The notes under the pieces are model-generated. The model did not search any database. It saw only the letters and a program-made list of their open reading frames with translations, and was not told the DNA's origin. Shown here piece by piece: positions 2,627-51,978 of a stretch of 54,972 nt of DNA. The position numbers and the translations under genes were made by a program. The stretch spans positions 1 to 54,972 of the forward strand of contig JACVIX010000003.1 of NCBI GenBank assembly GCA_015711725.1, given 5' to 3'. The DNA is from Candidatus Geothermincola primus (GTDB lineage Bacteria; Actinomycetota; Geothermincolia; Geothermincolales; Geothermincolaceae). Numbering within the stretch: position 1 is the first letter of the stretch; every line of letters starts with the position of its first letter.

Positions 2627-3760
2627 TTAGTTCCAGGGAAGAGGAATCCACTTGTTCTCCTTGTACCATTCGATGGTCTCTTTTAAACCCTGGATGGGAT
2701 CGGGATGGCGGTACTCGAATCCCAGCTCCTTCAAACGGGAGTTATCCATGAGGTGTTGGGAACTGAAGTAGTGAAAAGCGCTGGCGTCGATGCGAGGCCT
2801 GAAACCGGGTTGCAATTGCTGATCGGCGGCGAGCGCGTCCCATTTCTCGCCGATGATCTGATTTAATTTATTGAGGTAGCTATCAGGGATATGGGCGAGC
2901 AGGCCAAAGAATTTTCCTTGAGAAGGGCTCCACTTGAAGAAGCGGTGCGTTTTGCCATAGGAGGCGAAGAAGAGCTCCAGCAAATTCCGCCAGGTGGTGG
3001 GATAGTCGTCCCCGCAGTTGAAAGCCTGGCCCTCCACCCCTTGCTTGTCCAGGAGGAAGAGCGATGCCCTAGCCAAGTCCTGGGCGTGGACGATATGAAA
3101 GTAAAGACCCTCACCGGGCAGGGGAATCTTTTCAGCGTTGTATGAGCAGAGGACGATGGAAGCCCCCAGGATGAAAGCCATTCCGTAGCGCGAATAGGGT
3201 CCATAAACCGCGCCCGGGCGCAGGGAACAGGTGGGCAACCCATGTTTTTTCCAGTATCGCAGCACCAAAGTCTCACCTATCGCTTTGGTAATCTCGTAGC
3301 TGTTACGGGGAGCTAGGGGATATTCCTCCTTGAGAGGGATGGCGAAGGGTTTGCCGTAGACGGTGATAGAGGCTATATGGACTAGTTTTTCCACTCCGGC
3401 GGCTAGGGCGGCTCTGCATACATTCAGGGGAGCGCGCACGTTGGAGCGATACAGCGTCTCATAGGGAAGGCTTAAATCGAATAATCCGGCCACGTTGATG
3501 ACGTAGTTGCACCCCTCTATGGCCCCTCGAGCGAAGGGAAGATCGCATAAGTCGCCATACCTAATCTCCGCCCCTAACTCTTCCGCGTAGGAGAGGTCTT
3601 TCCCCAGCAGGTCACTGGCGACTATCCCGTAACCCGCCTCTGCTGCCTCCTCCACCACGTGGCGTCCGATGAACCCCCCCGCTCCATTTATAAAGACCCG
3701 TTTCTTTGGCCCTCCGCCGCTCTGGGAACGAATATGCGATTCTTCTTTATCCCTCTTCAA
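2627..3760 (-). CDS. NAD-dependent epimerase/dehydratase (extended SDR, HpnA/3-beta-HSD-like)
   Basis: GAGGFIG Rossmann motif, YEITK catalytic YxxxK, LRPGAVYGP. Confidence 0.85.
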   Translation of the reverse strand: MKRDKEESHIRSQSGGGPKKRVFINGAGGFIGRHVVEEAAEAGYGIVASDLLGKDLSYAEELGAEIRYGDLCDLPFARGAIEGCNYVINVAGLFDLSLPYETLYRSNVRAPLNVCRAALAAGVEKLVHIASITVYGKPFAIPLKEEYPLAPRNSYEITKAIGETLVLRYWKKHGLPTCSLRPGAVYGPYSRYGMAFILGASIVLCSYNAEKIPLPGEGLYFHIVHAQDLARASLFLLDKQGVEGQAFNCGDDYPTTWRNLLELFFASYGKTHRFFKWSPSQGKFFGLLAHIPDSYLNKLNQIIGEKWDALAADQQLQPGFRPRIDASAFHYFSSQHLMDNSRLKELGFEYRHPDPIQGLKETIEWYKENKWIPLPWN

Positions 3761-4400
3761 AGCCGATCACTCCCTTAAGCACCTCTCTCCACTTTTTATT
3801 AAGATTAACATCAACCGGCGAACAGCGCTAGAAGTTTGCGAAGTGCTTTCCGCGCCGATTTAAGGTCAATACCGTTCCGCAGCCAGTGGCGATTTATGCC
3901 ACGTTTCGATGTTTTATAAGATATCATGTTAATCTTGCATGGGGATGGGAGAAGGAATGATTGCTTAGAGAACGGTGGGCCTCTCATGTGCGTGGATATG
4001 GAGTTTAGGATAAGTTGAATCCAACAATCGCTGGAATCTGCACGATGGCGAAGGGCCAAGTCACCGCATCCATTGCTTGCATAGATAATCATGCTGATCG
4101 CTTTGAGCAACGTTTGGATACTGGCGATATTCCGATGGAACGCACGCGGGAAGAGCAAATTCGCTTTTAAATATCACAGAGTATTAATGACAATATGTCA
4201 TTATCATTCTATAACCTAGAAAAAGTTGGACGTTGCGATAAACGAGATATGTAATCGAGAGGACACGGGAGTTATAACTTAAAATATGATCTCGACAAAG
4301 TTGGAAGGACTAGAGCTGTCATGTTTGATCAAGGGGAAGTGCCTTCGAAGACCTACTTATCAAACCGCGTCTCAGTGACCCTTTCTTGTCCTAGGTGAGG

Positions 4401-4892
4401 TCAGGTGGCGCATTCCTCCTCGCTTCCCCGCAGCTTGGAGAGACCATGGGGAAGGGCGGGGAGAATTACCTCCAGGTTCTCCCTGGCTCCTCGGGGGCTT
4501 CCGGGAAGGTTCACGATCAAGGTGGAACCTCGAATACCGCTGATCGCCCGAGAAAGCATGGCGTGAGGAGTCTTCTGAAGAGAGCGCGCCCGCATGGCTT
4601 CCGCGAACCCAGGCGCTTCCCTCTCGATAAGCTTTAAGGTGACGTCGGGGGTTATATCCCGAGGGGAGAGCCCCGTCCCACCGGTAGTGAGGACCAAATC
4701 TACTTTAAGGATATCGCAGTATTCCCTCAGTTTTTGATAGATCTCATCCGCCTCATCCGCTACCAAGTCTCTTTTTACCACCTCCCACCCTTGGGAGAGG
4801 ATAAGTTTCTCCAACTCTAAACCGGATAAATCTTCCCGCTCCCCCCGTGCGCCCTTGTCGCTTACGGTGAGAATGGCGACGCGGAAATTCAA
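4401..4892 (-). CDS. mog: Molybdopterin adenylyltransferase MogA/MoaB
   Basis: LTVSD, DLSG, TTGGTG, RDITP, SRA and NLPGSP motifs. Start re-set to TTG at 4892, overlapping the MOSC stop, rather than 5018 in the ORF track. Confidence 0.9.
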   Translation of the reverse strand: MNFRVAILTVSDKGARGEREDLSGLELEKLILSQGWEVVKRDLVADEADEIYQKLREYCDILKVDLVLTTGGTGLSPRDITPDVTLKLIEREAPGFAEAMRARSLQKTPHAMLSRAISGIRGSTLIVNLPGSPRGARENLEVILPALPHGLSKLRGSEEECAT

Positions 4893-5347
4893 TCCTCCAT
4901 CACCTCGATGAGGTCCCCTCTCCTCAAGTGGCCTCCCCTGATCACGCGAGCGAAGATACCCTCCCGGGGCATGATGCAATCGCCCGCCTGGTAGTAGATG
5001 GCGCAGCGCTCCACGCACTCCTTACCTATCTGGCTTACCTCCAATATTATCTCTTCTCCTACGCGCAAGCGATCCCCTACTTTGAGGGAGAGTAGGTCTA
5101 TACCGGAGGTGGTAAGGTTTTCCCCAAATGCTCCGGGGCGTAGATTTTTCAGCCCCAGAGCCTTCATCTTCTCCACGCTTTCCTCCGCCAGCAAGCTCAC
5201 TTGTCTATGGGCGTAGCCGGCATGAGCGTCCCCTTCCAGCCCGTACTCCTCGATGAGAAGAGCTTTTCCCACGTCGTCTTTCTGCACGTGCTTCTCTGAG
5301 CTTATGCACACCGCCTTGATCACGCCCTTCTTACCCACTAACGTCAT
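4889..5347 (-). CDS. MOSC domain-containing protein
   Basis: GLEGDAHAG..HRQVSLL, GAFGENLTT, EVSQIGKEC...C, CIMPREGIFARV; lies inside the moa operon. Confidence 0.9.
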   Translation of the reverse strand: MTLVGKKGVIKAVCISSEKHVQKDDVGKALLIEEYGLEGDAHAGYAHRQVSLLAEESVEKMKALGLKNLRPGAFGENLTTSGIDLLSLKVGDRLRVGEEIILEVSQIGKECVERCAIYYQAGDCIMPREGIFARVIRGGHLRRGDLIEVMED

Positions 5348-45758: not shown

Positions 45759-46406
45759 TCACTTCTCGTGGTTGATTTCCGTCTCCCGATCGTAGACCAA
45801 TCGGTTCCACAATACCTTACCGGGGTCTTCCCTCAATTTCTTCTTTTTTAGGTACGGACTACCCTGCGCGCGACGGAGAATGGTAAGGACCAGCACCGCC
45901 AGGGTGAAGGCGATCAGCTCAGGAGGTCTTTCTAACCGCCAGGCGATTATCGGCAGAAGGGCTAGTCCCAGTAGGTTCATCTCCGCAGTGTGTCGGGTGA
46001 AGACTCCCAGGGTGAGAAATGCGGTCAGTGTGGCCCCCTCATAAGGAATTAAGATGAGCGTTCCGGCCAAAGCCATGGCCATACCGCGCCCTCCCTGGAA
46101 ACGCAGATAAAAGGGCCAATTGTGACCGGCGATTACCGCCAGACCACCACCCACTTGCCAACCTAGGCCCCAACCTAGTGAACGGATAATCAAAATAACC
46201 GCTACTTCTTCGGCGCAATCTAGAAAAAAGGCTATCGCCGCCTTACCTTTGCCCAATTGCAGAGAGAGGTTAGAAGCTCCTAAGTTGCCGCTGCCAGTTT
46301 TACGGAGGTCTATTCCCAACTTAAAACGAGCGAGGATGTAAGACAGGTTTATCGTGCCTAAGAGATAGGCTGCAACCAATATCAGGATTCTTGGTAGATA
46401 AACCAA
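45759..46406 (-). CDS. plsY: Acyl-phosphate:glycerol-3-phosphate acyltransferase PlsY
   Basis: YLLGTI, DLRKTGSGNLGASN, GHNWP.YLRFQGGRGMA motifs; TTG start after AAAGGAG. Confidence 0.88.
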   Translation of the reverse strand: MVYLPRILILVAAYLLGTINLSYILARFKLGIDLRKTGSGNLGASNLSLQLGKGKAAIAFFLDCAEEVAVILIIRSLGWGLGWQVGGGLAVIAGHNWPFYLRFQGGRGMAMALAGTLILIPYEGATLTAFLTLGVFTRHTAEMNLLGLALLPIIAWRLERPPELIAFTLAVLVLTILRRAQGSPYLKKKKLREDPGKVLWNRLVYDRETEINHEK

Positions 46407-46981
46407 AATAGGATCGATCTCCTTTATAGTTTAACCTAGATATGGAATATCCGAACCATAATTATGTTCATGATTATATTGAATGATGGCTCTCATCATT
46501 GCTAATTCTCCACTTTCCCCGCTTTTGGTTTAATTTGATTCTCCTGATGTCTCCCCGCGATGTCTTTACCATTCTATATTCTCCACTATCTCCGCATCGG
46601 TAATCTCCGTTACGATGGCCCTTTATAAATTCCAATTACAAAGGCGAGGGTTTAACGCTTTATATGTGAATATTTACTCCTAATTAAAGTTATTTCCTTC
46701 ATCTTGGAGCCCATTTAGTTTTTATGATAATTGGATATGAAAGAAGGTCTATTCCCCCCGTTTGTGTACCAATCATCATAAAAAGTTAATGATCATTAAT
46801 GTAAAAGAAATCCCAAGGCCTCTCACGCTATCATCATAATGAGTGCGATAGATTATTATCGGGACCTCGTCAATGAGGGGTTGGGCAAAGAGTTCCTCTC
46901 TAAAACAATTTCACGTTATACTGAGGATGTTAATGATATTAATCTTAATAAATAATAACCGAGGGAGGGAAGAGCCAAGCG

Positions 46982-47680
46982 ATGGAGGAGTTCATTCCGG
47001 CGAAACACCTGGAGGCGCTGGAGGAGATAAGCAAGGCGATAACCTCGGAGCTTTACCTCGAGGATATTCTCAAACTCATCGTCATGCTGACCGCTGAGGT
47101 AATGAACTCCAATACTTGTTCCCTGATGCTCCTGGACGAAAAGACCAAAGAGTTGCGCATCCGGGCGACCCAGTCCATCAGCGAGGAATACTTGAGCAAG
47201 CCCCCTCCCAGGTTGGGGGAGGGGATAGCAGGGTTAGTGGCGAAGTATGGCAAGCCCATCACCTCCCTGGACGTGAGGATGGACCCCCGATATTTAAACA
47301 AGGAGGTAGCGCGCAAAGAGGGGCTCTGTTCCTTGCTATCCGTGCCCATGATGGTCAAAGGGAGGATCATCGGGGTGCTCAACTGTTACACTTCCCAGCC
47401 CCACGAGTTCACCGAGGGGGAGATAAGGCTACTCACAGCGGTGGCATGCCAAGCGGCCATCGCCATAGAGAATACCGAGTTGATGGTGCGCACCCGGATT
47501 ATACAGGAGGAGTTGGAGACCCGCAAACTGGTGGAGAGGGCTAAGGATATCCTCATGCGGGACAGGGGGCTTTCCGGTGAGGAGGCTTATCGACGCATAC
47601 AGCGCAAATCCATGGACACCCGCAAGAGCATGCGGGAGATCGCCGAGGCCATCATCCTCGCCGACTTGGGCTACGATTGA
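46982..47680 (+). CDS. GAF + ANTAR RNA-binding antiterminator
   Basis: GAF domain (CSLMLLD, GEGIAG.VA, LLSVPM, IGVLN, AAIAIEN), then a coiled coil and ANTAR domain (LETRKLVERAKDILM...LS.EEAYRRIQRKSMDTRKSMREIAEAI). Confidence 0.95.
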   Translation: MEEFIPAKHLEALEEISKAITSELYLEDILKLIVMLTAEVMNSNTCSLMLLDEKTKELRIRATQSISEEYLSKPPPRLGEGIAGLVAKYGKPITSLDVRMDPRYLNKEVARKEGLCSLLSVPMMVKGRIIGVLNCYTSQPHEFTEGEIRLLTAVACQAAIAIENTELMVRTRIIQEELETRKLVERAKDILMRDRGLSGEEAYRRIQRKSMDTRKSMREIAEAIILADLGYD

Positions 47681-48889
47681 GATAATACGCGGGCGGAGTT
47701 GTTAATGAAAAAGTTAGCGGCGCCCTAAATACCTTGCGAAAACCCTGATCATAGATGAGATTAATTATTTACATAATGTAATATATTTGTTTTGCCCTCG
47801 CTTAATGCGAGAATTACCTAAATCACTCTCTGCCGCCCAATAAAGATATAGCCATATTCAATTGTCGAAATTCATGGAGACTAGTTGAAGGATAGCTAAT
47901 ACTTAACGAAGCGGGTAGGGAAGCGAACTCTTTATTTCCTATGAAGCATGTAATGGCTAAATTCAGGGAAAAAAGCTCTATCATATGATGAAACCGTAGA
48001 GAAAAATGGAATATCGACGGTATTGAAAATAAGCGGAAGAGATGGAGATTAGGCGAACAGGTTAGTCGAGCCATTCCTAAGAAGTTGAGGATAGGGGCGC
48101 GCAGAAAGAATGACAAAAGGAGGGATAACGAGATGACAGGGTGGCTGGATCGATTCCAAAGAAGGGAAAGAAAGAGATGCGTGGAAGCGCGCACAAATTC
48201 AGAGAAAGACAGCTGGCGTAGGCCAGGTTCTTGTGGCTCTGGCGGGCTCGAGCATGCTGATCGACTCATTTCTCCTCGCCGTACGGGATACCACCGCTTT
48301 CAAAAAAGTAGCCCGGATATGCTTACCACCTTGCTTTTCATATTGGGGTTGTTTAACTTTCTCGGCCTCCTGGCAGTTATTTCGATCATGATGAATTGGT
48401 CTCGCCGACTTAAGTTGTCTTGGAAATAGAAGATCATTCCCTACGATCTTGCCCGTATTTTTCTGGAAAATGTTAAAATCTATTATTCTGACGCACTTAT
48501 GTGGTTTCGCCCTCACTTATGGCTTCTAGACTTTGCTCATGCCTGGTATCAGTTGAATAAAAAGCGTTTCCAAGAAGCTCTTCGACTTCTTCAAAGAGAA
48601 TTATCCAGACGTTTCGCTAGGCTATAGCAAAGAGCTGGTCAGGCGAGACAGGAAAGGTCCTTTTTCTGTGAGATAAAATCCCCAGAGGCTAATAAAAGAT
48701 GAAAAAACCGCTATTAATTGACTCTGGCGAGGCCGGCACGCCAATTCTTAAATATTCCGATCCATCTTCTTCGCTTCGAATAAATGAGGTTTGATCTTGG
48801 TAAATATAGTCCTCCCTAATCATTTGGATTTATGTTTTATTAATATATTATTGAATTTTATGGAGAGCGCCTTAGAATAACTTCTATGC

Positions 48890-48918
48890 TTGACACCGCA
48901 ATATGGTTCACTTAATAT
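48890..48918 (+). promoter_or_regulatory. Sigma70-type promoter of the redox/glutamate-synthase-like operon
   Basis: TTGACA (48890-48895), 17-nt spacer, TAATAT (48913-48918), with AT-rich upstream DNA. Confidence 0.75.
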
Positions 48919-48934
48919 TTTTCAAGATAGTTAT

Positions 48935-48967
48935 GCACAATGATGTGCTAATTTGACGGAGTCGTCG
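48935..48967 (+). promoter_or_regulatory. ANTAR-target dual-hexaloop RNA motif
   Basis: P1 GCAC-AATGAT-GTGC (loop A1/G4, C-G closing pair), 6-nt linker, P2 GAC-GGAGTC-GTC (G4 kept, G at position 1); P2 overlaps the terminator 5' arm. Confidence 0.8.
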
Positions 48968-48986
48968 TGAAGATGGCTCTTTTTTT
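48959..48986 (+). terminator. Leader attenuator terminator
   Basis: GAGTCGTC-gtgaa-GATGGCTC stem (2 G-U pairs) followed by T7, ending 21 nt before the start codon at 49008. Confidence 0.8.
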
Positions 48987-49007
48987 GTTGAAGAGGGAGA
49001 TGGTTGT

Positions 49008-49487
49008 ATGGAAGAAGACGTAAGACCAGAAGTTCAGGTGATGGAGAGGTATGGATATGAGCGAAGTTATCTTATATCCATTCTTCACGAGGTGCAGAAA
49101 GAATATCAATACTTACCAGAGCAAGCGTTACGTAACGTTGCTGCGGGGATGGGCATCTCTCTGGTGGATATTTATGGTGTGGCTACTTTTTTCAAAGCAT
49201 TTTCTCTCAAACCCAAGGGCAAACATTCCATCGTGCTCTGTATGGGCACGGCTTGTCATGTGCGTAACTCCCGAGGGCTGTTGGAAGAAGCCCGCCGTTT
49301 CCTGGGTATCGAGCCTGGGGATACCACTGATGATCTGCTTTTCTCGTTGGATACGGTGAATTGCTTAGGAGCCTGTGCCTTGGGGCCCATAGCGGTAATT
49401 GATGGTGAATATCACGGTCAGATGACACCGGCGAAGATGGAAAGACTGCTGAAGAAGCTGGCAAAAGAAGAGGGTGTGAGAAAATGA
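49008..49487 (+). CDS. NuoE/HydC-like [2Fe-2S] subunit
   Basis: LISILHEVQ..Y.YLP, YGVATFF, CMGTACHV, VNCLGACALGP. Confidence 0.93.
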   Translation: MEEDVRPEVQVMERYGYERSYLISILHEVQKEYQYLPEQALRNVAAGMGISLVDIYGVATFFKAFSLKPKGKHSIVLCMGTACHVRNSRGLLEEARRFLGIEPGDTTDDLLFSLDTVNCLGACALGPIAVIDGEYHGQMTPAKMERLLKKLAKEEGVRK

Positions 49488-51346
49488 AAGGCTCATTAAG
49501 TAGCCCCAAAGATTTGAATGAATATAGAAAATCAATACAATCCACCAAAAAGAAGTTTGAAAAGGTTATATCGGTATGCGGAGGAACTGGGTGTCATGCG
49601 CAAAACTGCGTCCAGGTTCGCGAAGAGATAAGCCGCGAGTTAGATGAGAGATTGCTTTCGGATAAGGTGATGGTAAAATTCACGGGATGCCATGGTTTTT
49701 GCGAGATGGGTCCATTGGTGGTAATTCATCCTGCGGGCATCCTATATGTGAAGGTCAGCCCAAGTGACGCTCAGAGGATTATCGAATCAAGTGTGGTTGG
49801 CGATTCGGTAATTGACGAACTTCTTTATAAAGATGTTGCAACCGGAAAAAATTTTGAAAAAGAGCAAGATGTCCCCTTTTATTCAAAACAGAAACGCCTG
49901 CTTTTGGCCATGAATGGCATGATTGATCCTCAGAATATAGAGGATTACATAGCCCAAGAGGGTTATTCTGCGCTGGTGAAGGCGCTATTCGAAATGTCCC
50001 CGGAGGAGATTATTAAAGAAGTTGAGATCGCGGGCCTGCGTGGCCGTGGAGGAGCCGGATTTCCCACGGCAAACAAATGGAAAGCCTGCCGGAGAGCGAG
50101 GGCGCGAGACAATATTAAATATATCCTGTGCAACGCGGACGAAGGAGATCCTGGGGCCTATATGGATAGGTCCCTGCTTGAAGGCAACCCTCATGCGGTT
50201 ATCGAGGGGATGATTATTGGTGCTTATGCTATTGGGGCTACTGAGGGTTTTGTTTATGTGCGTCACGAGTATCCTCTCGCGGTAGAGAATTTATTGAAAG
50301 CCCTCGAACAAGCGCGTCAATTGGGCCTGCTCGGAGATAACATTTTAGGCTCCGGTTTCAGCTTCGATATCAAGGTGAGCGTGGGAGGGGGCGCCTTTGT
50401 CTGCGGAGAATCCACTGCTTTGATGGCCTCCATCGAGGGGCGCATCGGTGAGCCGCGGGTCAAGCACATCCACACCGCGGAAAAAGGTCTTTACAATCGG
50501 CCCACCAACCTAAATAACGTCGAAACCTGGGCCAATGTCCCTATCATCATCAGGGAGGGCGCTGAGGCTTATGCGCGCATCGGGACGGAGAAGAGCCGTG
50601 GCACCAAGATATTCTCTCTGGTGGGCAAGGTAAGGAACACAGGTTTGGTGGAAGTGCCTATGGGTATCACCTTGCGAGAGATAATCTTCGATATAGGTGG
50701 AGGCATGGCAAATGGAAAGGCTTTCAAAGCTGTTCAAACGGGAGGACCTTCAGGAGGATGCATACCTGAGAGCATGTTGGACACCCCAGTGGATTTCGAA
50801 CGCCTCACTGAGGTGGGATCCATGATGGGTTCAGGAGGAATGATCGTCATGGATGAATCCACCTGTATGGTGGATATCGCCCGCTATTTTGTGGATTTCC
50901 TCTGCGAGGAATCCTGCGGGAAATGCGTGCCTTGTCGTGAGGGCCTGAAGCAGATGCGTTTCATCCTTGACGATATCGTTTCCGGGAGAGCAACCGGCAA
51001 GCAACTGGAGCTGCTTAAAGAACTGGCAGAGGTGGTTAGGGATACTTCTTTGTGCGGGTTAGGCCAGACCGCGCCCAATCCCGTTCTCTCCACCATTAAA
51101 TACTTCGAGGATGAGTACCATGAACATATCGAGGAGAAGCGATGTCGTGCGGGAGTGTGTCGGGATCTAATCGAATACCAGATAGATGCGGATAAGTGCA
51201 CAGGCTGTCTTCGCTGCAAAGCGCAGTGTCCAGTAGGCGCGGTATTGGGAGAAAAGGAGAAACCGCATCATATAGACTTGTCAAAGTGCGAAAAGTGTGG
51301 CATCTGCTATGAAGTATGCGAGTTTGGCGCGGTCCTAAGGAAGTGA
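49484..51346 (+). CDS. NuoF/HydB-like FMN/NADH-binding subunit with extra FeS domains (bifurcating-type architecture)
   Basis: N-terminal CGGTGC...GCHGFC, GLRGRGGAGF, NADEGDPGAYMDR, FVCGESTAL, GGPSGG, ESCGKCVPCREG, SLCGLG, H....CRAGVC, C-terminal 2x[4Fe-4S]. Confidence 0.95.
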   Translation: MKGSLSSPKDLNEYRKSIQSTKKKFEKVISVCGGTGCHAQNCVQVREEISRELDERLLSDKVMVKFTGCHGFCEMGPLVVIHPAGILYVKVSPSDAQRIIESSVVGDSVIDELLYKDVATGKNFEKEQDVPFYSKQKRLLLAMNGMIDPQNIEDYIAQEGYSALVKALFEMSPEEIIKEVEIAGLRGRGGAGFPTANKWKACRRARARDNIKYILCNADEGDPGAYMDRSLLEGNPHAVIEGMIIGAYAIGATEGFVYVRHEYPLAVENLLKALEQARQLGLLGDNILGSGFSFDIKVSVGGGAFVCGESTALMASIEGRIGEPRVKHIHTAEKGLYNRPTNLNNVETWANVPIIIREGAEAYARIGTEKSRGTKIFSLVGKVRNTGLVEVPMGITLREIIFDIGGGMANGKAFKAVQTGGPSGGCIPESMLDTPVDFERLTEVGSMMGSGGMIVMDESTCMVDIARYFVDFLCEESCGKCVPCREGLKQMRFILDDIVSGRATGKQLELLKELAEVVRDTSLCGLGQTAPNPVLSTIKYFEDEYHEHIEEKRCRAGVCRDLIEYQIDADKCTGCLRCKAQCPVGAVLGEKEKPHHIDLSKCEKCGICYEVCEFGAVLRK

Positions 51347-51351
51347 TAGAC

Positions 51352-51978
51352 ATGGTTAACCTGATAATCGACGGACAGCACGTACAGGCGGAAGAGGGAT
51401 GGACGATTTTAGAAACCGCGCGTTATTACGGTATTGACACCATCCCGACCTTATGTTACCGGGAGGGGTTGACTACCGATAGTTCCTGCCGACTTTGCGT
51501 GGTAGAGATAATATCGCGAGGCCGCTCCCGTCTTTCAGCTTCCTGCTCTTACCCGGTGCAGGAGGGTATCGAGGTGCGAACCAATTCCCGCAGGGTAAGG
51601 CAGGCGAGAAAGATAATAATTGAACTTCTATTGGCTTCCTGCCCCAACTCCAAGACCTTGCAGTGCCTCGCTTCCCAGTACGGGATAAAAGAACTGCGTT
51701 TCAAGGTTGAAGACCGAGGCTGTATCCTATGCGGCCTATGCGTACGCATGTGCAAGGAACAGATGCAGGCGGGTGCCATAGGTTTTTTCAACCGAGGAGT
51801 CGATCGAAGGGTGGCTATGCCCTTTCACGTTCGCTCGGATGTCTGCAGGGAATGCGGGGCTTGCCTATATATATGTCCTGTCTGTGAGCTGCAATGTCGC
51901 GGCCCAAGAGAGCCAGGCGACCTTTGTAACGGATGTTTTGAGGCGATAAGAATAGATCCCTTTCCCTCTAGGGATTGA
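51352..51978 (+). CDS. NuoG-N/HydA-N-like FeS subunit ([2Fe-2S] + 2x[4Fe-4S]) without catalytic domain
   Basis: IPTLC...SCRLCVV...ASC, CILCGLCVRMC, CRECGACLYICP; only about 208 aa. Start re-set to ATG 51352. Confidence 0.9.
   Translation: MVNLIIDGQHVQAEEGWTILETARYYGIDTIPTLCYREGLTTDSSCRLCVVEIISRGRSRLSASCSYPVQEGIEVRTNSRRVRQARKIIIELLLASCPNSKTLQCLASQYGIKELRFKVEDRGCILCGLCVRMCKEQMQAGAIGFFNRGVDRRVAMPFHVRSDVCRECGACLYICPVCELQCRGPREPGDLCNGCFEAIRIDPFPSRD

Follow-up and report, generated by a model that had tools for sequence, protein, structure and literature searches.

The window considered here is a stretch of 54,972 nucleotides from Candidatus Geothermincola primus (GenBank assembly GCA_015711725.1, contig JACVIX010000003.1, forward strand), a member of the Actinomycetota. 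Towards its end lie, in this order and in one direction, a gene for a one-component regulator that joins a GAF sensor domain to an ANTAR domain, an intergenic spacer, a short leader, and an operon encoding NuoE-like, NuoF-like and HoxU-like proteins and a protein of the glutamate synthase family. The leader begins with a promoter and carries two small hexaloop hairpins, P1 and P2, followed by an intrinsic terminator (Table 1). The subject of this report is this leader, its relation to the GAF-ANTAR protein encoded upstream, and the signal to which the two may respond.

Anatomy of the leader

An earlier note on this DNA had described a complete ANTAR antitermination switch. When the sequence was read again, every element on its list (promoter, P1, linker, P2 and terminator) was found at the positions collected in Table 1. 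The loop of P1 is a canonical A1/G4 hexaloop (A48939, G48942). The stem of P2 has 3 bp, or 4 if U54-G67 is counted, and its hexaloop has G48958 at position 1 and G48961 at position 4. The 5' arm of the terminator consists exactly of loop 2 together with the 3' arm of P2, and P2 and the terminator are therefore mutually exclusive, a property that the earlier note had also claimed and that is borne out by the double use of 48958-48966 in the two structures.

A dual-hexaloop antiterminator that overlaps an intrinsic terminator is the published model of ANTAR control (PMC3369931, PMC8934654), and a curation rule given for ANTAR RNAs is a linker of 2-25 nt between the hairpins (PMC8164766). The leader has two hexaloop hairpins, a G4 in both loops, a linker of 6 nt and an overlap between P2 and the terminator, and its genome holds an ANTAR gene; the feature of the class from which it departs is an A1 in both loops.

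Folding points to the terminated form as the resting one. The minimum free energy (MFE) fold of 48925-48995, computed with RNAfold, consists of P1 and the terminator at -19.5 kcal/mol (z = -2.65), with 2 of 200 shuffled sequences equally stable. Evaluated singly, P1 has an energy of -5.0, P2 of -2.2 and the terminator of -12.5 kcal/mol. Since P1 plus terminator is the MFE structure and the terminator is far stronger than P2, the default state is taken to be termination. Scans for the flanking signals agree with the reading by eye, though matches of either kind are common: the leader promoter ranked first in a scan of 46500-49600 (3.1 kb) with 10 of 12 matches, where 8 promoters were found against 5.0 +/- 2.5 in shuffles, and the leader terminator was listed with 9 pairs, a loop of 5 and a T-run, where 6 terminators were found against 3.1 expected. 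Transcription of the leader would start near 48925.

Table 1. Positions of the regulator gene, the spacer, the leader elements and the operon genes in the window (position 1 is its first letter)
Feature	Position	Strand	Detail and basis
GAF-ANTAR one-component regulator gene, 232 aa	46982..47680	+	Pfam GAF_2 and ANTAR
Spacer, 1209 nt, without recognisable gene	47681..48889	.	between regulator and leader
Promoter, sigma-70-type	48890..48918	+	TTGACA 48890-48895, 17-nt spacer, TAATAT 48913-48918; sequence and consensus scan
P1 hairpin	48935..48948	+	GCAC 48935-48938, loop AATGAT 48939-48944, GTGC 48945-48948; 4 bp
Linker TAATTT, 6 nt	48949..48954	+	read from sequence
P2 hairpin, antiterminator arm	48955..48966	+	GAC 48955-48957, loop GGAGTC 48958-48963, GTC 48964-48966
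Intrinsic terminator, 9-bp stem and T7	48958..48986	+	5' arm GGAGTCGTC 48958-48966, loop GTGAA 48967-48971, 3' arm GATGGCTCT 48972-48980, T7 48980-48986; sequence, fold, terminator scan
Shine-Dalgarno AGAGGGAG and ATG (49008) of the first operon gene	48992..49010	+	sequence
NuoE/HoxE-like thioredoxin-like [2Fe-2S] protein, 159 aa	49008..49487	+	Pfam 2Fe-2S_thioredx, 164.7 bits
NuoF-like NADH/FMN subunit with extra 2Fe-2S and 2x[4Fe-4S] domains, 620 aa	49484..51346	+	Pfam Complex1_51K, NADH_4Fe-4S, Fer4
HoxU/NuoG-N-terminal-like 2Fe-2S and 4Fe-4S protein	51316..51978	+	Pfam Fer2_4, Fer4_7
FMN-binding glutamate-synthase-family protein, 529 aa	51991..53580	+	partial Pfam Glu_synthase

Conservation of the RNA and its loss with the regulator

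Orthologues of the regulator, 62-83% identical to it, were present in 30 of 41 related genomes, the genome of the window counted among them. A gltB-like or nuoE/nuoF-like gene lay at most 1.5 kb from the orthologue in 26 of the 29 loci of the relatives, and in all 11 of the loci fetched the whole nuoE-nuoF-FeS-gltB-like operon was convergent with the regulator gene. Leaders were read by eye in 14 syntenic loci of co-directional and 11 of convergent order, and every one showed a promoter, P1, P2 and terminator; each of these 25 leaders had a promoter of the TTGAC type, a P1 of the GCAC/GTGC type closed by a hexaloop, a P2 of the form GAC-hexaloop-GTC, and a terminator taking in P2.

For the alignment, 27 leaders, that of the window among them, were picked by a pattern (a 4-bp P1, R1 and G4 in loop 1, G4 in loop 2, and GAC/GTC), and these features hold in it by construction. 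Two positions were uniform even though they had not been selected: all 27 leaders have A as the second base of loop 1 and a purine as the first base of loop 2. Every aligned leader also had a TTGAC-N17-19-TnnnnT promoter, ending 9-17 nt ahead of the aligned P1 block (which begins 2 nt 5' of P1), as well as a terminator of -9.0 to -23.0 kcal/mol that overlaps P2, while the linker varied between 5 and 11 nt among the relatives. The proportion of paired cells was 91.2%, against 81.8 +/- 1.4 in shuffled alignments, of which none in 500 reached the observed value; the covariation score was 0.270 against 0.112, and slid controls paired at 13-49%. Compensatory changes were found in P1, where four of six pairs vary on both sides (e.g., from G-C to A-U and from C-G to U-A).

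The terminators of these leaders bear on how an ANTAR protein would act once bound to both hairpins. Translational control by ANTAR RNAs has been described for actinobacteria (PMC8164766; 10.1101/660928), and a protein acting here mainly on translation or RNA stability, not on termination, would be in line with those accounts. But the P1 and P2 hairpins stop clear of the Shine-Dalgarno sequence, 26 nt short of it, and a strong terminator overlapping P2 in every aligned leader is the layout of antitermination in firmicutes and proteobacteria (PMC3369931). We consider control at the level of translation or stability exceedingly improbable, and return to antitermination as the preferred mode of action.

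Several further observations were made on the loci of relatives. At L031, about 1270-1411 on the minus strand (G033:C5:218734-218827), P1-P2-terminator modules stand in tandem before nuoE (E 9.5e-5 and 0.013). In G003, a genome of the same family (L043 3063-4408), the leader lies about 85 nt past the regulator gene and is followed not by the nuoEF-gltB-like operon but by a glutamate dehydrogenase gene (ELFV_dehydrog); carB is found on the upstream side of the regulator gene. In G004, also of the same family (L044 2894-2951), the leader is likewise about 85 nt past the regulator gene. A blastn comparison of the leader with the relatives' loci gave short word matches only, one of which, in L022, is coding sequence, and was set aside.

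Hairpins this small can arise by chance, and specificity within the 3.17-Mb genome therefore depends on the pattern used. A loose pattern of twin hexaloops and a T-run gave 233 matches and was dropped as unspecific. The lineage-specific pattern (a 4-bp P1 with an R..G.. loop, then GAC-NNNGNN-GTC) occurs at 14 sites, both strands included; only the leader site has a terminator overlapping P2, and three of the other sites merely have a T-run downstream. A covariance model, R2, was then trained on 27 leaders of relatives, with the sequence of the window left out. Against the window, with filters off, it scored the leader at 26.8 bits (E 2.6e-5) and the runner-up at 7.3 bits, and against the whole genome the leader was the top match (E 0.0015). 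At the level of sequence, we regard this leave-one-out model as the decisive test against chance occurrence.

A search for further twin-loop leaders, for example at glnA or amtB, had been suggested, but none was found in this genome by pattern scans or by the covariance model. As the model searches at first took in 150 candidates out of some 750-780, two exhaustive pattern scans were added. Among the 99 P1-like sites of the genome scanned exhaustively, three have a terminator and only the leader site also has P2; the other covariance-model matches, of at most 18.3 bits, are without terminators and look coding. A canonical glutamate synthase cluster on contig C23 showed no ANTAR-type leader in the model and pattern scans, nor did one appear in the 1 kb upstream of its amidotransferase gene on reading by eye, and an operon start lying further upstream than this 1 kb was not read by eye. 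In its own genome, the regulator and the leader apparently form a one-regulator, one-operon system.

The distribution of the RNA follows that of the protein. A first covariance model, R1, gave a strong match (E <= 2e-4) in 29 of the 30 genomes with the regulator and in 1 of the 11 without it, a comparison in which 27 of the 29 positive genomes had themselves contributed to R1 and match by construction, and to which no statistic is attached, related genomes not being independent. The sole regulator-bearing genome without a strong match, G013, has its regulator gene on a contig of 2.9 kb. In G001, which lies outside R1, a leader with the loop 2 GCGGTC was matched, and it precedes a gltB-like gene. 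The one R1-positive genome without an orthologue, G018, has a decaying locus (L138, G018:C3:108500-116500, about 3150-4550), in which an intact leader is followed by nuoE, a nuoF fragment (residues 5-123), a gltB-like fragment (residues 445-513) and a GAF-ANTAR fragment (residues 8-68).

Genomes that lack the regulator can be compared from the side of the operon. A gltB-like gene was present in 3 of 10 ANTAR-less genomes searched (of 11; G038 was left out). In one of them, G009, the operon is whole, and the leader upstream of nuoE (L136, G009:C36:2500-9500, about 4620-4900, minus strand) still has its promoter, but of P1 there is only a relic whose loop measures 8 nt; P2 is missing, and where the terminator would be expected there is only a weak hairpin of 5 bp, with a T-run that is interrupted. 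In the other two, G014 and G032, no leader motif was seen. The G009 leader looks like the decay of a switch following the loss of its regulator: if a terminator is tolerable only with its antiterminator protein, terminator loss is to be expected along with regulator loss, as seen. On these comparisons, the RNA motif and the regulator appear to have been gained and lost together.

Such co-occurrence also bears on the view that the leader works without a protein, with P1 as a 5' stabilising hairpin, the terminator leaky or otherwise controlled (by a metabolite-binding RNA or by sensing of nucleoside triphosphates), and the ANTAR protein acting elsewhere. The abundance of chance twin-hairpin patterns in the genome, the absence of covariation in the P2 core and the 1.25 kb between regulator and leader could all be taken in its favour. 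It is countered, apart from the joint presence and loss of RNA and gene, by the size of the leader, which measures only about 50 nt from P1 to terminator and would seem too small for a typical riboswitch aptamer, and by Rfam, no family of which matches the leader even at E <= 10 (a search of 46000-50000 at that threshold gave five chance-level matches, none within the leader). In addition, no other candidate target was found for the only ANTAR protein of the genome, and the conservation of the loops, namely the unselected A2 of loop 1 and purine-1 of loop 2, exceeds what a hairpin needs. A protein-independent leader is accordingly rated very unlikely, and control by the GAF-ANTAR protein is pursued below.

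The GAF-ANTAR protein and the proposed mechanism

The regulator has a GAF_2 domain at residues 26-163 (79 bits) and an ANTAR domain at residues 175-225 (70.3 bits against a cut-off of 27.3). It is the sole match to PF03861 (72.7 bits) in a genome estimated to be 99.7% complete, and it is encoded 1255 nt upstream. The ANTAR domain aligns with those of Rv1626, EutV and NasR, the NasR match being confined to this domain (E 4.4e-7). Y203 and M211 fall opposite the two residues, a Tyr and a Met, with which EutV contacts RNA in chain 6wsh, whose index we infer to run 2 above the Tyr164/Met172 of PMC8934654. In EutV, as described in that paper, the Tyr stacks on the G4 of the loop and the Met plugs the loop (PMC8934654). 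Of 40 orthologues, 27 have Y and 13 have F at position 203, and all 40 retain M211.

A model of the regulator homodimer reached an ipSAE of 0.60, against 0.00 for the best control, with a pLDDT of 86 and at least 97% of contacts shared between runs; on calibration, 20 of 30 proteins solved as pairs of one chain attained this ipSAE mark, as did 1 of 23 solved as single chains. The modelled interface is symmetric; GAF helices take part in it together with residues 146-181, in the direction of the ANTAR domain. The score of the model may reflect likeness to GAF dimers that have already been solved rather than be proof of a dimer.

The earlier note had named the GAF-ANTAR protein 1.25 kb upstream as the cognate regulator, and this assignment gains from four lines of evidence, i.e., its being the only PF03861 protein, the synteny, the co-occurrence and co-loss with the RNA, and the kept RNA-contact residues. 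On sequence evidence, the protein is the best candidate regulator and is most likely the one that opens the leader.

Relatives of the regulator are widespread, being found in 226 stretches (one genome per species) that belong, by record label, to many phyla. The best 80 of these 226 are 61-79% identical to the regulator and carry labels such as Omnitrophota, Aerophobetes, Deltaproteobacteria/Thermodesulfobacteriota, Planctomycetia, uncultured Clostridia and Elusimicrobiota, among others. A strict regular expression gave 6 sites in 5 of these 80 distant loci, all on the plus strand and none on the minus; it was too rigid and was replaced by the covariance model. R1 gave 26 matches at E <= 1, spread over 22 of the loci, and every one shares its strand with the ANTAR gene; one of the 26 is on the contig of G003, itself part of R1, and one looks spurious. 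In the alignment of these matches, which was fitted to the model, 91.0% of cells were paired and the covariation score was 0.418 against 0.188.

In several distant phyla, a module of dual hairpin and terminator immediately precedes the GAF-ANTAR gene on the same strand (L074 2393-2432, L078 2366-2405, L114 2372-2415, L119 2268-2308 and L106 2119-2157). This position suggests that the regulator may control its own synthesis there. In the window, no such dual-hairpin module precedes the regulator gene.

The second loop had been called non-canonical. It does have G1 where A1 is expected, but this is no peculiarity of the site: of the 27 leaders, 23 have G and 4 have A as the first base of loop 2, and loop 1 begins with A in 20 of them and with G in the other 7. 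Among the 18 cleanly aligned matches from distant phyla, 14 have A and 4 have G at the start of loop 2. G4 of loop 2, in turn, is present in 18 of 18 of these distant hexaloops, where it was not selected for, and in 27 of 27 aligned leaders, where it was. As judged from these sequences, loop-2 G1 is a trait of the lineage and not an accident of this site, and the warning that strict motif searches could overlook the site holds more broadly, as a search that insists on A1 in the two loops would pass over most of this lineage's leaders. In leaders with G1, the terminator stem usually begins at the 5' arm of P2 (GACGA with TCGTC), so that G1 itself is paired in the terminator.

Bringing these results together, the leader is, on the reading of its sequence, a genuine ANTAR-type dual-hexaloop antitermination switch, a mild variant that adds nothing to the ANTAR mechanism, and we hold it to be quite probable that it serves as a protein-dependent transcription attenuator opened by the upstream GAF-ANTAR protein. 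In the mechanism proposed, the sigma-70-type promoter would start transcription about 10 nt ahead of P1, and P1 would form in the nascent RNA. Without the protein, loop 2 and the 3' arm of P2 would pair with 48972-48980 to give the -12.5 kcal/mol terminator, followed by U7, and unaided transcription would halt near 48985, after about 60 nt. The GAF-ANTAR protein, activated via its GAF domain, would set one ANTAR domain of its dimer on each hexaloop, with the G4 of each loop stacked on the conserved aromatic residue (Y203). The bound dimer would keep the weak P2 (-2.2 kcal/mol) closed and thereby withhold the 5' arm of the terminator, so that polymerase would read on into the genes for the NuoE-like, NuoF-like and HoxU-like subunits and the FMN glutamate-synthase-family protein.

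A number of points weigh against this reading, in addition to the choice of the 27 leaders by pattern and the overlap of R1 with the genomes it matched. All of the support is computational, and it is from such support that we infer the binding, the geometry of one dimer on two loops, termination and read-through, and the ligand and its sign. The GAC/GTC core of P2 is invariant in the 27 leaders and so lends no covariation support. Loop 2 is without the A1 that full EutV induction required in reporters, as tested with A-to-U mutants (PMC3369931), and its G1 and C6 could cross-pair and close the loop to a tetraloop. In the crystal structure as presented in PMC8934654, no specific contact is made by A1, whose role may be confined to preventing pairing across the loop; G1 is therefore treated as a variant and not as excluding the leader from the mechanism.

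Gene order must also be counted among the difficulties. In 14 relatives the regulator is directly upstream and co-directional, 55-424 nt from the P1 block, and in 11 others it is convergent, at the 3' end of the operon, whereas in the window it stands 1255 nt off across an unexplained spacer. This spacer is AT-rich (41.8% GC, against 51.0% for the genome). It is no repeat within the genome and shows no blastn or tblastx similarity to the relatives' loci, its three open reading frames (105-148 aa) have no Pfam match, and Rfam gave nothing.

The operon, the signal and the known systems

The operon encodes a set of redox proteins that resemble parts of known complexes. The 159-aa product matches the NCBIfam models of both HoxE and NuoE below their cut-offs, and the 620-aa product matches nuoF_fam at 469 bits, under the cut-off of 558.65. 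The HoxU-like gene probably begins in reality at M13 (51352), just past the stop of the nuoF-like gene at 51346, since orthologues align from residue 12-13 only. The 529-aa product covers only positions 185-302 of the 369 of Glu_synthase (PF01645; 55.3 bits); its atlas clusters are named 'FMN-binding glutamate synthase family protein' (score 0.98), and neither NCBIfam nor a sequence search of the PDB gave a match for it. The amidotransferase domain has no PF00310 match in the window, and for the GXGXG module (PF01493) no search was made. The single PF00310 match of the genome is on C23, beside a full PF01645 gene, in a canonical split glutamate synthase (G000:C23:17267-20006, minus strand) made up of a GATase_2 gene and a full-length Glu_synthase gene (488.6 bits). 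Because its PF01645 match is partial, PF00310 is not matched in the window and the canonical enzyme is on C23, the target is called glutamate-synthase-like and not GOGAT. A limited literature search for a NuoF-linked glutamate synthase found nothing relevant.

What the GAF domain senses is approached through its relatives and its targets. Its best PDB sequence matches are the GAF domains of enzyme I-Ntr (PtsP) and a NifA-like GAF domain. PtsP-type GAF domains have been described to respond to glutamine/2-oxoglutarate, and NifA-like ones to 2-oxoglutarate (PMC5024086, PMC12998190). Every target seen adjoining the regulator is of a glutamate-forming enzyme type, including the glutamate dehydrogenase of G003. 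On this basis, carbon/nitrogen status, i.e., 2-oxoglutarate and/or glutamine, is put forward tentatively as the signal, a proposal to which we give somewhat less than an even chance. Two facts stand against it. It draws only on family resemblance below thresholds, the NCBIfam matches of the regulator being far under their cut-offs (57.6 against 583 bits for PtsP, and 53.2 against 528.85 bits for NifA). Moreover, the closest GAF paralogue in the genome, about 50% identical, is the second GAF domain of a 721-aa MASE1-GAF-GAF-HD_5 protein (G000:C8, L054 451-2616).

Most of the relatives searched have an equivalent protein of the MASE1-GAF-GAF-HD_5 type, 711-791 aa long. PtsP was considered as the nearest paralogue in the own genome and rejected, with matches at the level of the GAF domain only.

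The same facts can be read for a switch and regulator as described whose GAF domain answers to something other than nitrogen status. Candidates would be a cyclic nucleotide, glutamate in the role of a substrate to be broken down, or a redox or energy metabolite that suits an NADH/Fe-S enzyme. On this reading another need would induce the operon, e.g., the oxidation of glutamate rather than its synthesis. That glutamate dehydrogenase, which takes the place of the usual target in G003, works in both directions counts for this reading. So does the lack of an amidotransferase domain in the target enzyme together with the presence of a canonical split glutamate synthase on C23, by which direction and substrate are left open. 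The distance of the PtsP and NifA matches from their cut-offs and the place of the closest GAF paralogue in a signalling protein fit it too, and GAF domains as a class bind many ligands (PMC3369931). Against it, the best matches among solved structures are PtsP-type and NifA-like and not cyclic-nucleotide GAF domains, all targets adjoining the regulator are of the glutamate-forming type, and the ANTAR regulons published are dominated by nitrogen metabolism (PMC3369931). A signal other than nitrogen status is a serious contender, for which our estimate is not much above one chance in three.

Three published systems come close to the switch proposed here. The first is EutV with the eutP, eutG, eutS and eutA leaders of Enterococcus faecalis, in which two short hexaloop hairpins with G4 are followed by a terminator that includes the second hairpin (PMC3369931, PMC8934654). 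As in EutV, the ANTAR domain follows a presumed dimerising helix, and the aromatic and Met contacts to RNA are kept. EutV, however, is a REC-ANTAR protein with a phosphorylated receiver, whereas here a GAF sensor would be read directly; its leaders have A1 and not G1 in loop 2; it has four targets against one; and these serve ethanolamine use and not a glutamate-synthase-like redox enzyme.

The second is NasR with the nasF leader of Klebsiella oxytoca, where a ligand domain and an ANTAR domain are likewise joined in one chain, the regulator gene is upstream of the operon, dual hexaloop hairpins relieve a leader terminator, and the theme is nitrogen assimilation (PMC7496416, PMC12591593). NasR differs in having an all-helical NIT domain in place of the GAF sensor, and it resembles the regulator in sequence only within the ANTAR domain, as given above.

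The third concerns the target genes themselves. ANTAR substrates have been predicted before glutamate synthase genes in Desulfotomaculum reducens, and a nitrogen regulon in D. acetoxidans (Ramesh et al. 2012, PMC3369931, Fig. 9). Like the leader described here, these were recognised by covariance search as dual-hairpin antiterminators overlapping a terminator upstream of genes of the glutamate synthase type, and they are bioinformatic predictions for other organisms (PMC3369931). The hit lists in Tables S1/S2 of that paper may already contain leaders of this kind. ANTAR leaders before glutamate synthase genes have thus already been reported, and the variant features of the present case are the lineage-wide G1 in loop 2, a GAF sensor that is unstudied, and an uncharacterised NuoEF-linked enzyme. 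GAF-ANTAR proteins are listed as an uncharacterised class in the parts of the literature cited here, up to a review of 2025 (PMC3369931, PMC7496416, PMC12591593).

A bolder reading, which we think rather unlikely, would make the GAF-ANTAR family widespread riboregulators that sense 2-oxoglutarate/glutamine directly, without PII or a kinase. Here they would gate an NADH-linked FMN enzyme of the NuoEF/HoxU type that makes glutamate from ammonia and is swappable for glutamate dehydrogenase, and G1 would be natural evidence that ANTAR proteins need only G4 and a purine. Recognition of G4 plus a purine would fit the crystal structure, because A1 makes no contact there.

The GAF-ANTAR family is large and spread, by record label, across several phyla, and it is unusually conserved (61-79% identity among the best 80 of 226). 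Within it, the locus is a minimal study system, with one regulator, one RNA element of 52 nt and one operon. It would allow the ligand to be found, the dispensability of A1 to be tested, and the function of a NuoEF-linked enzyme of the glutamate synthase family to be established.

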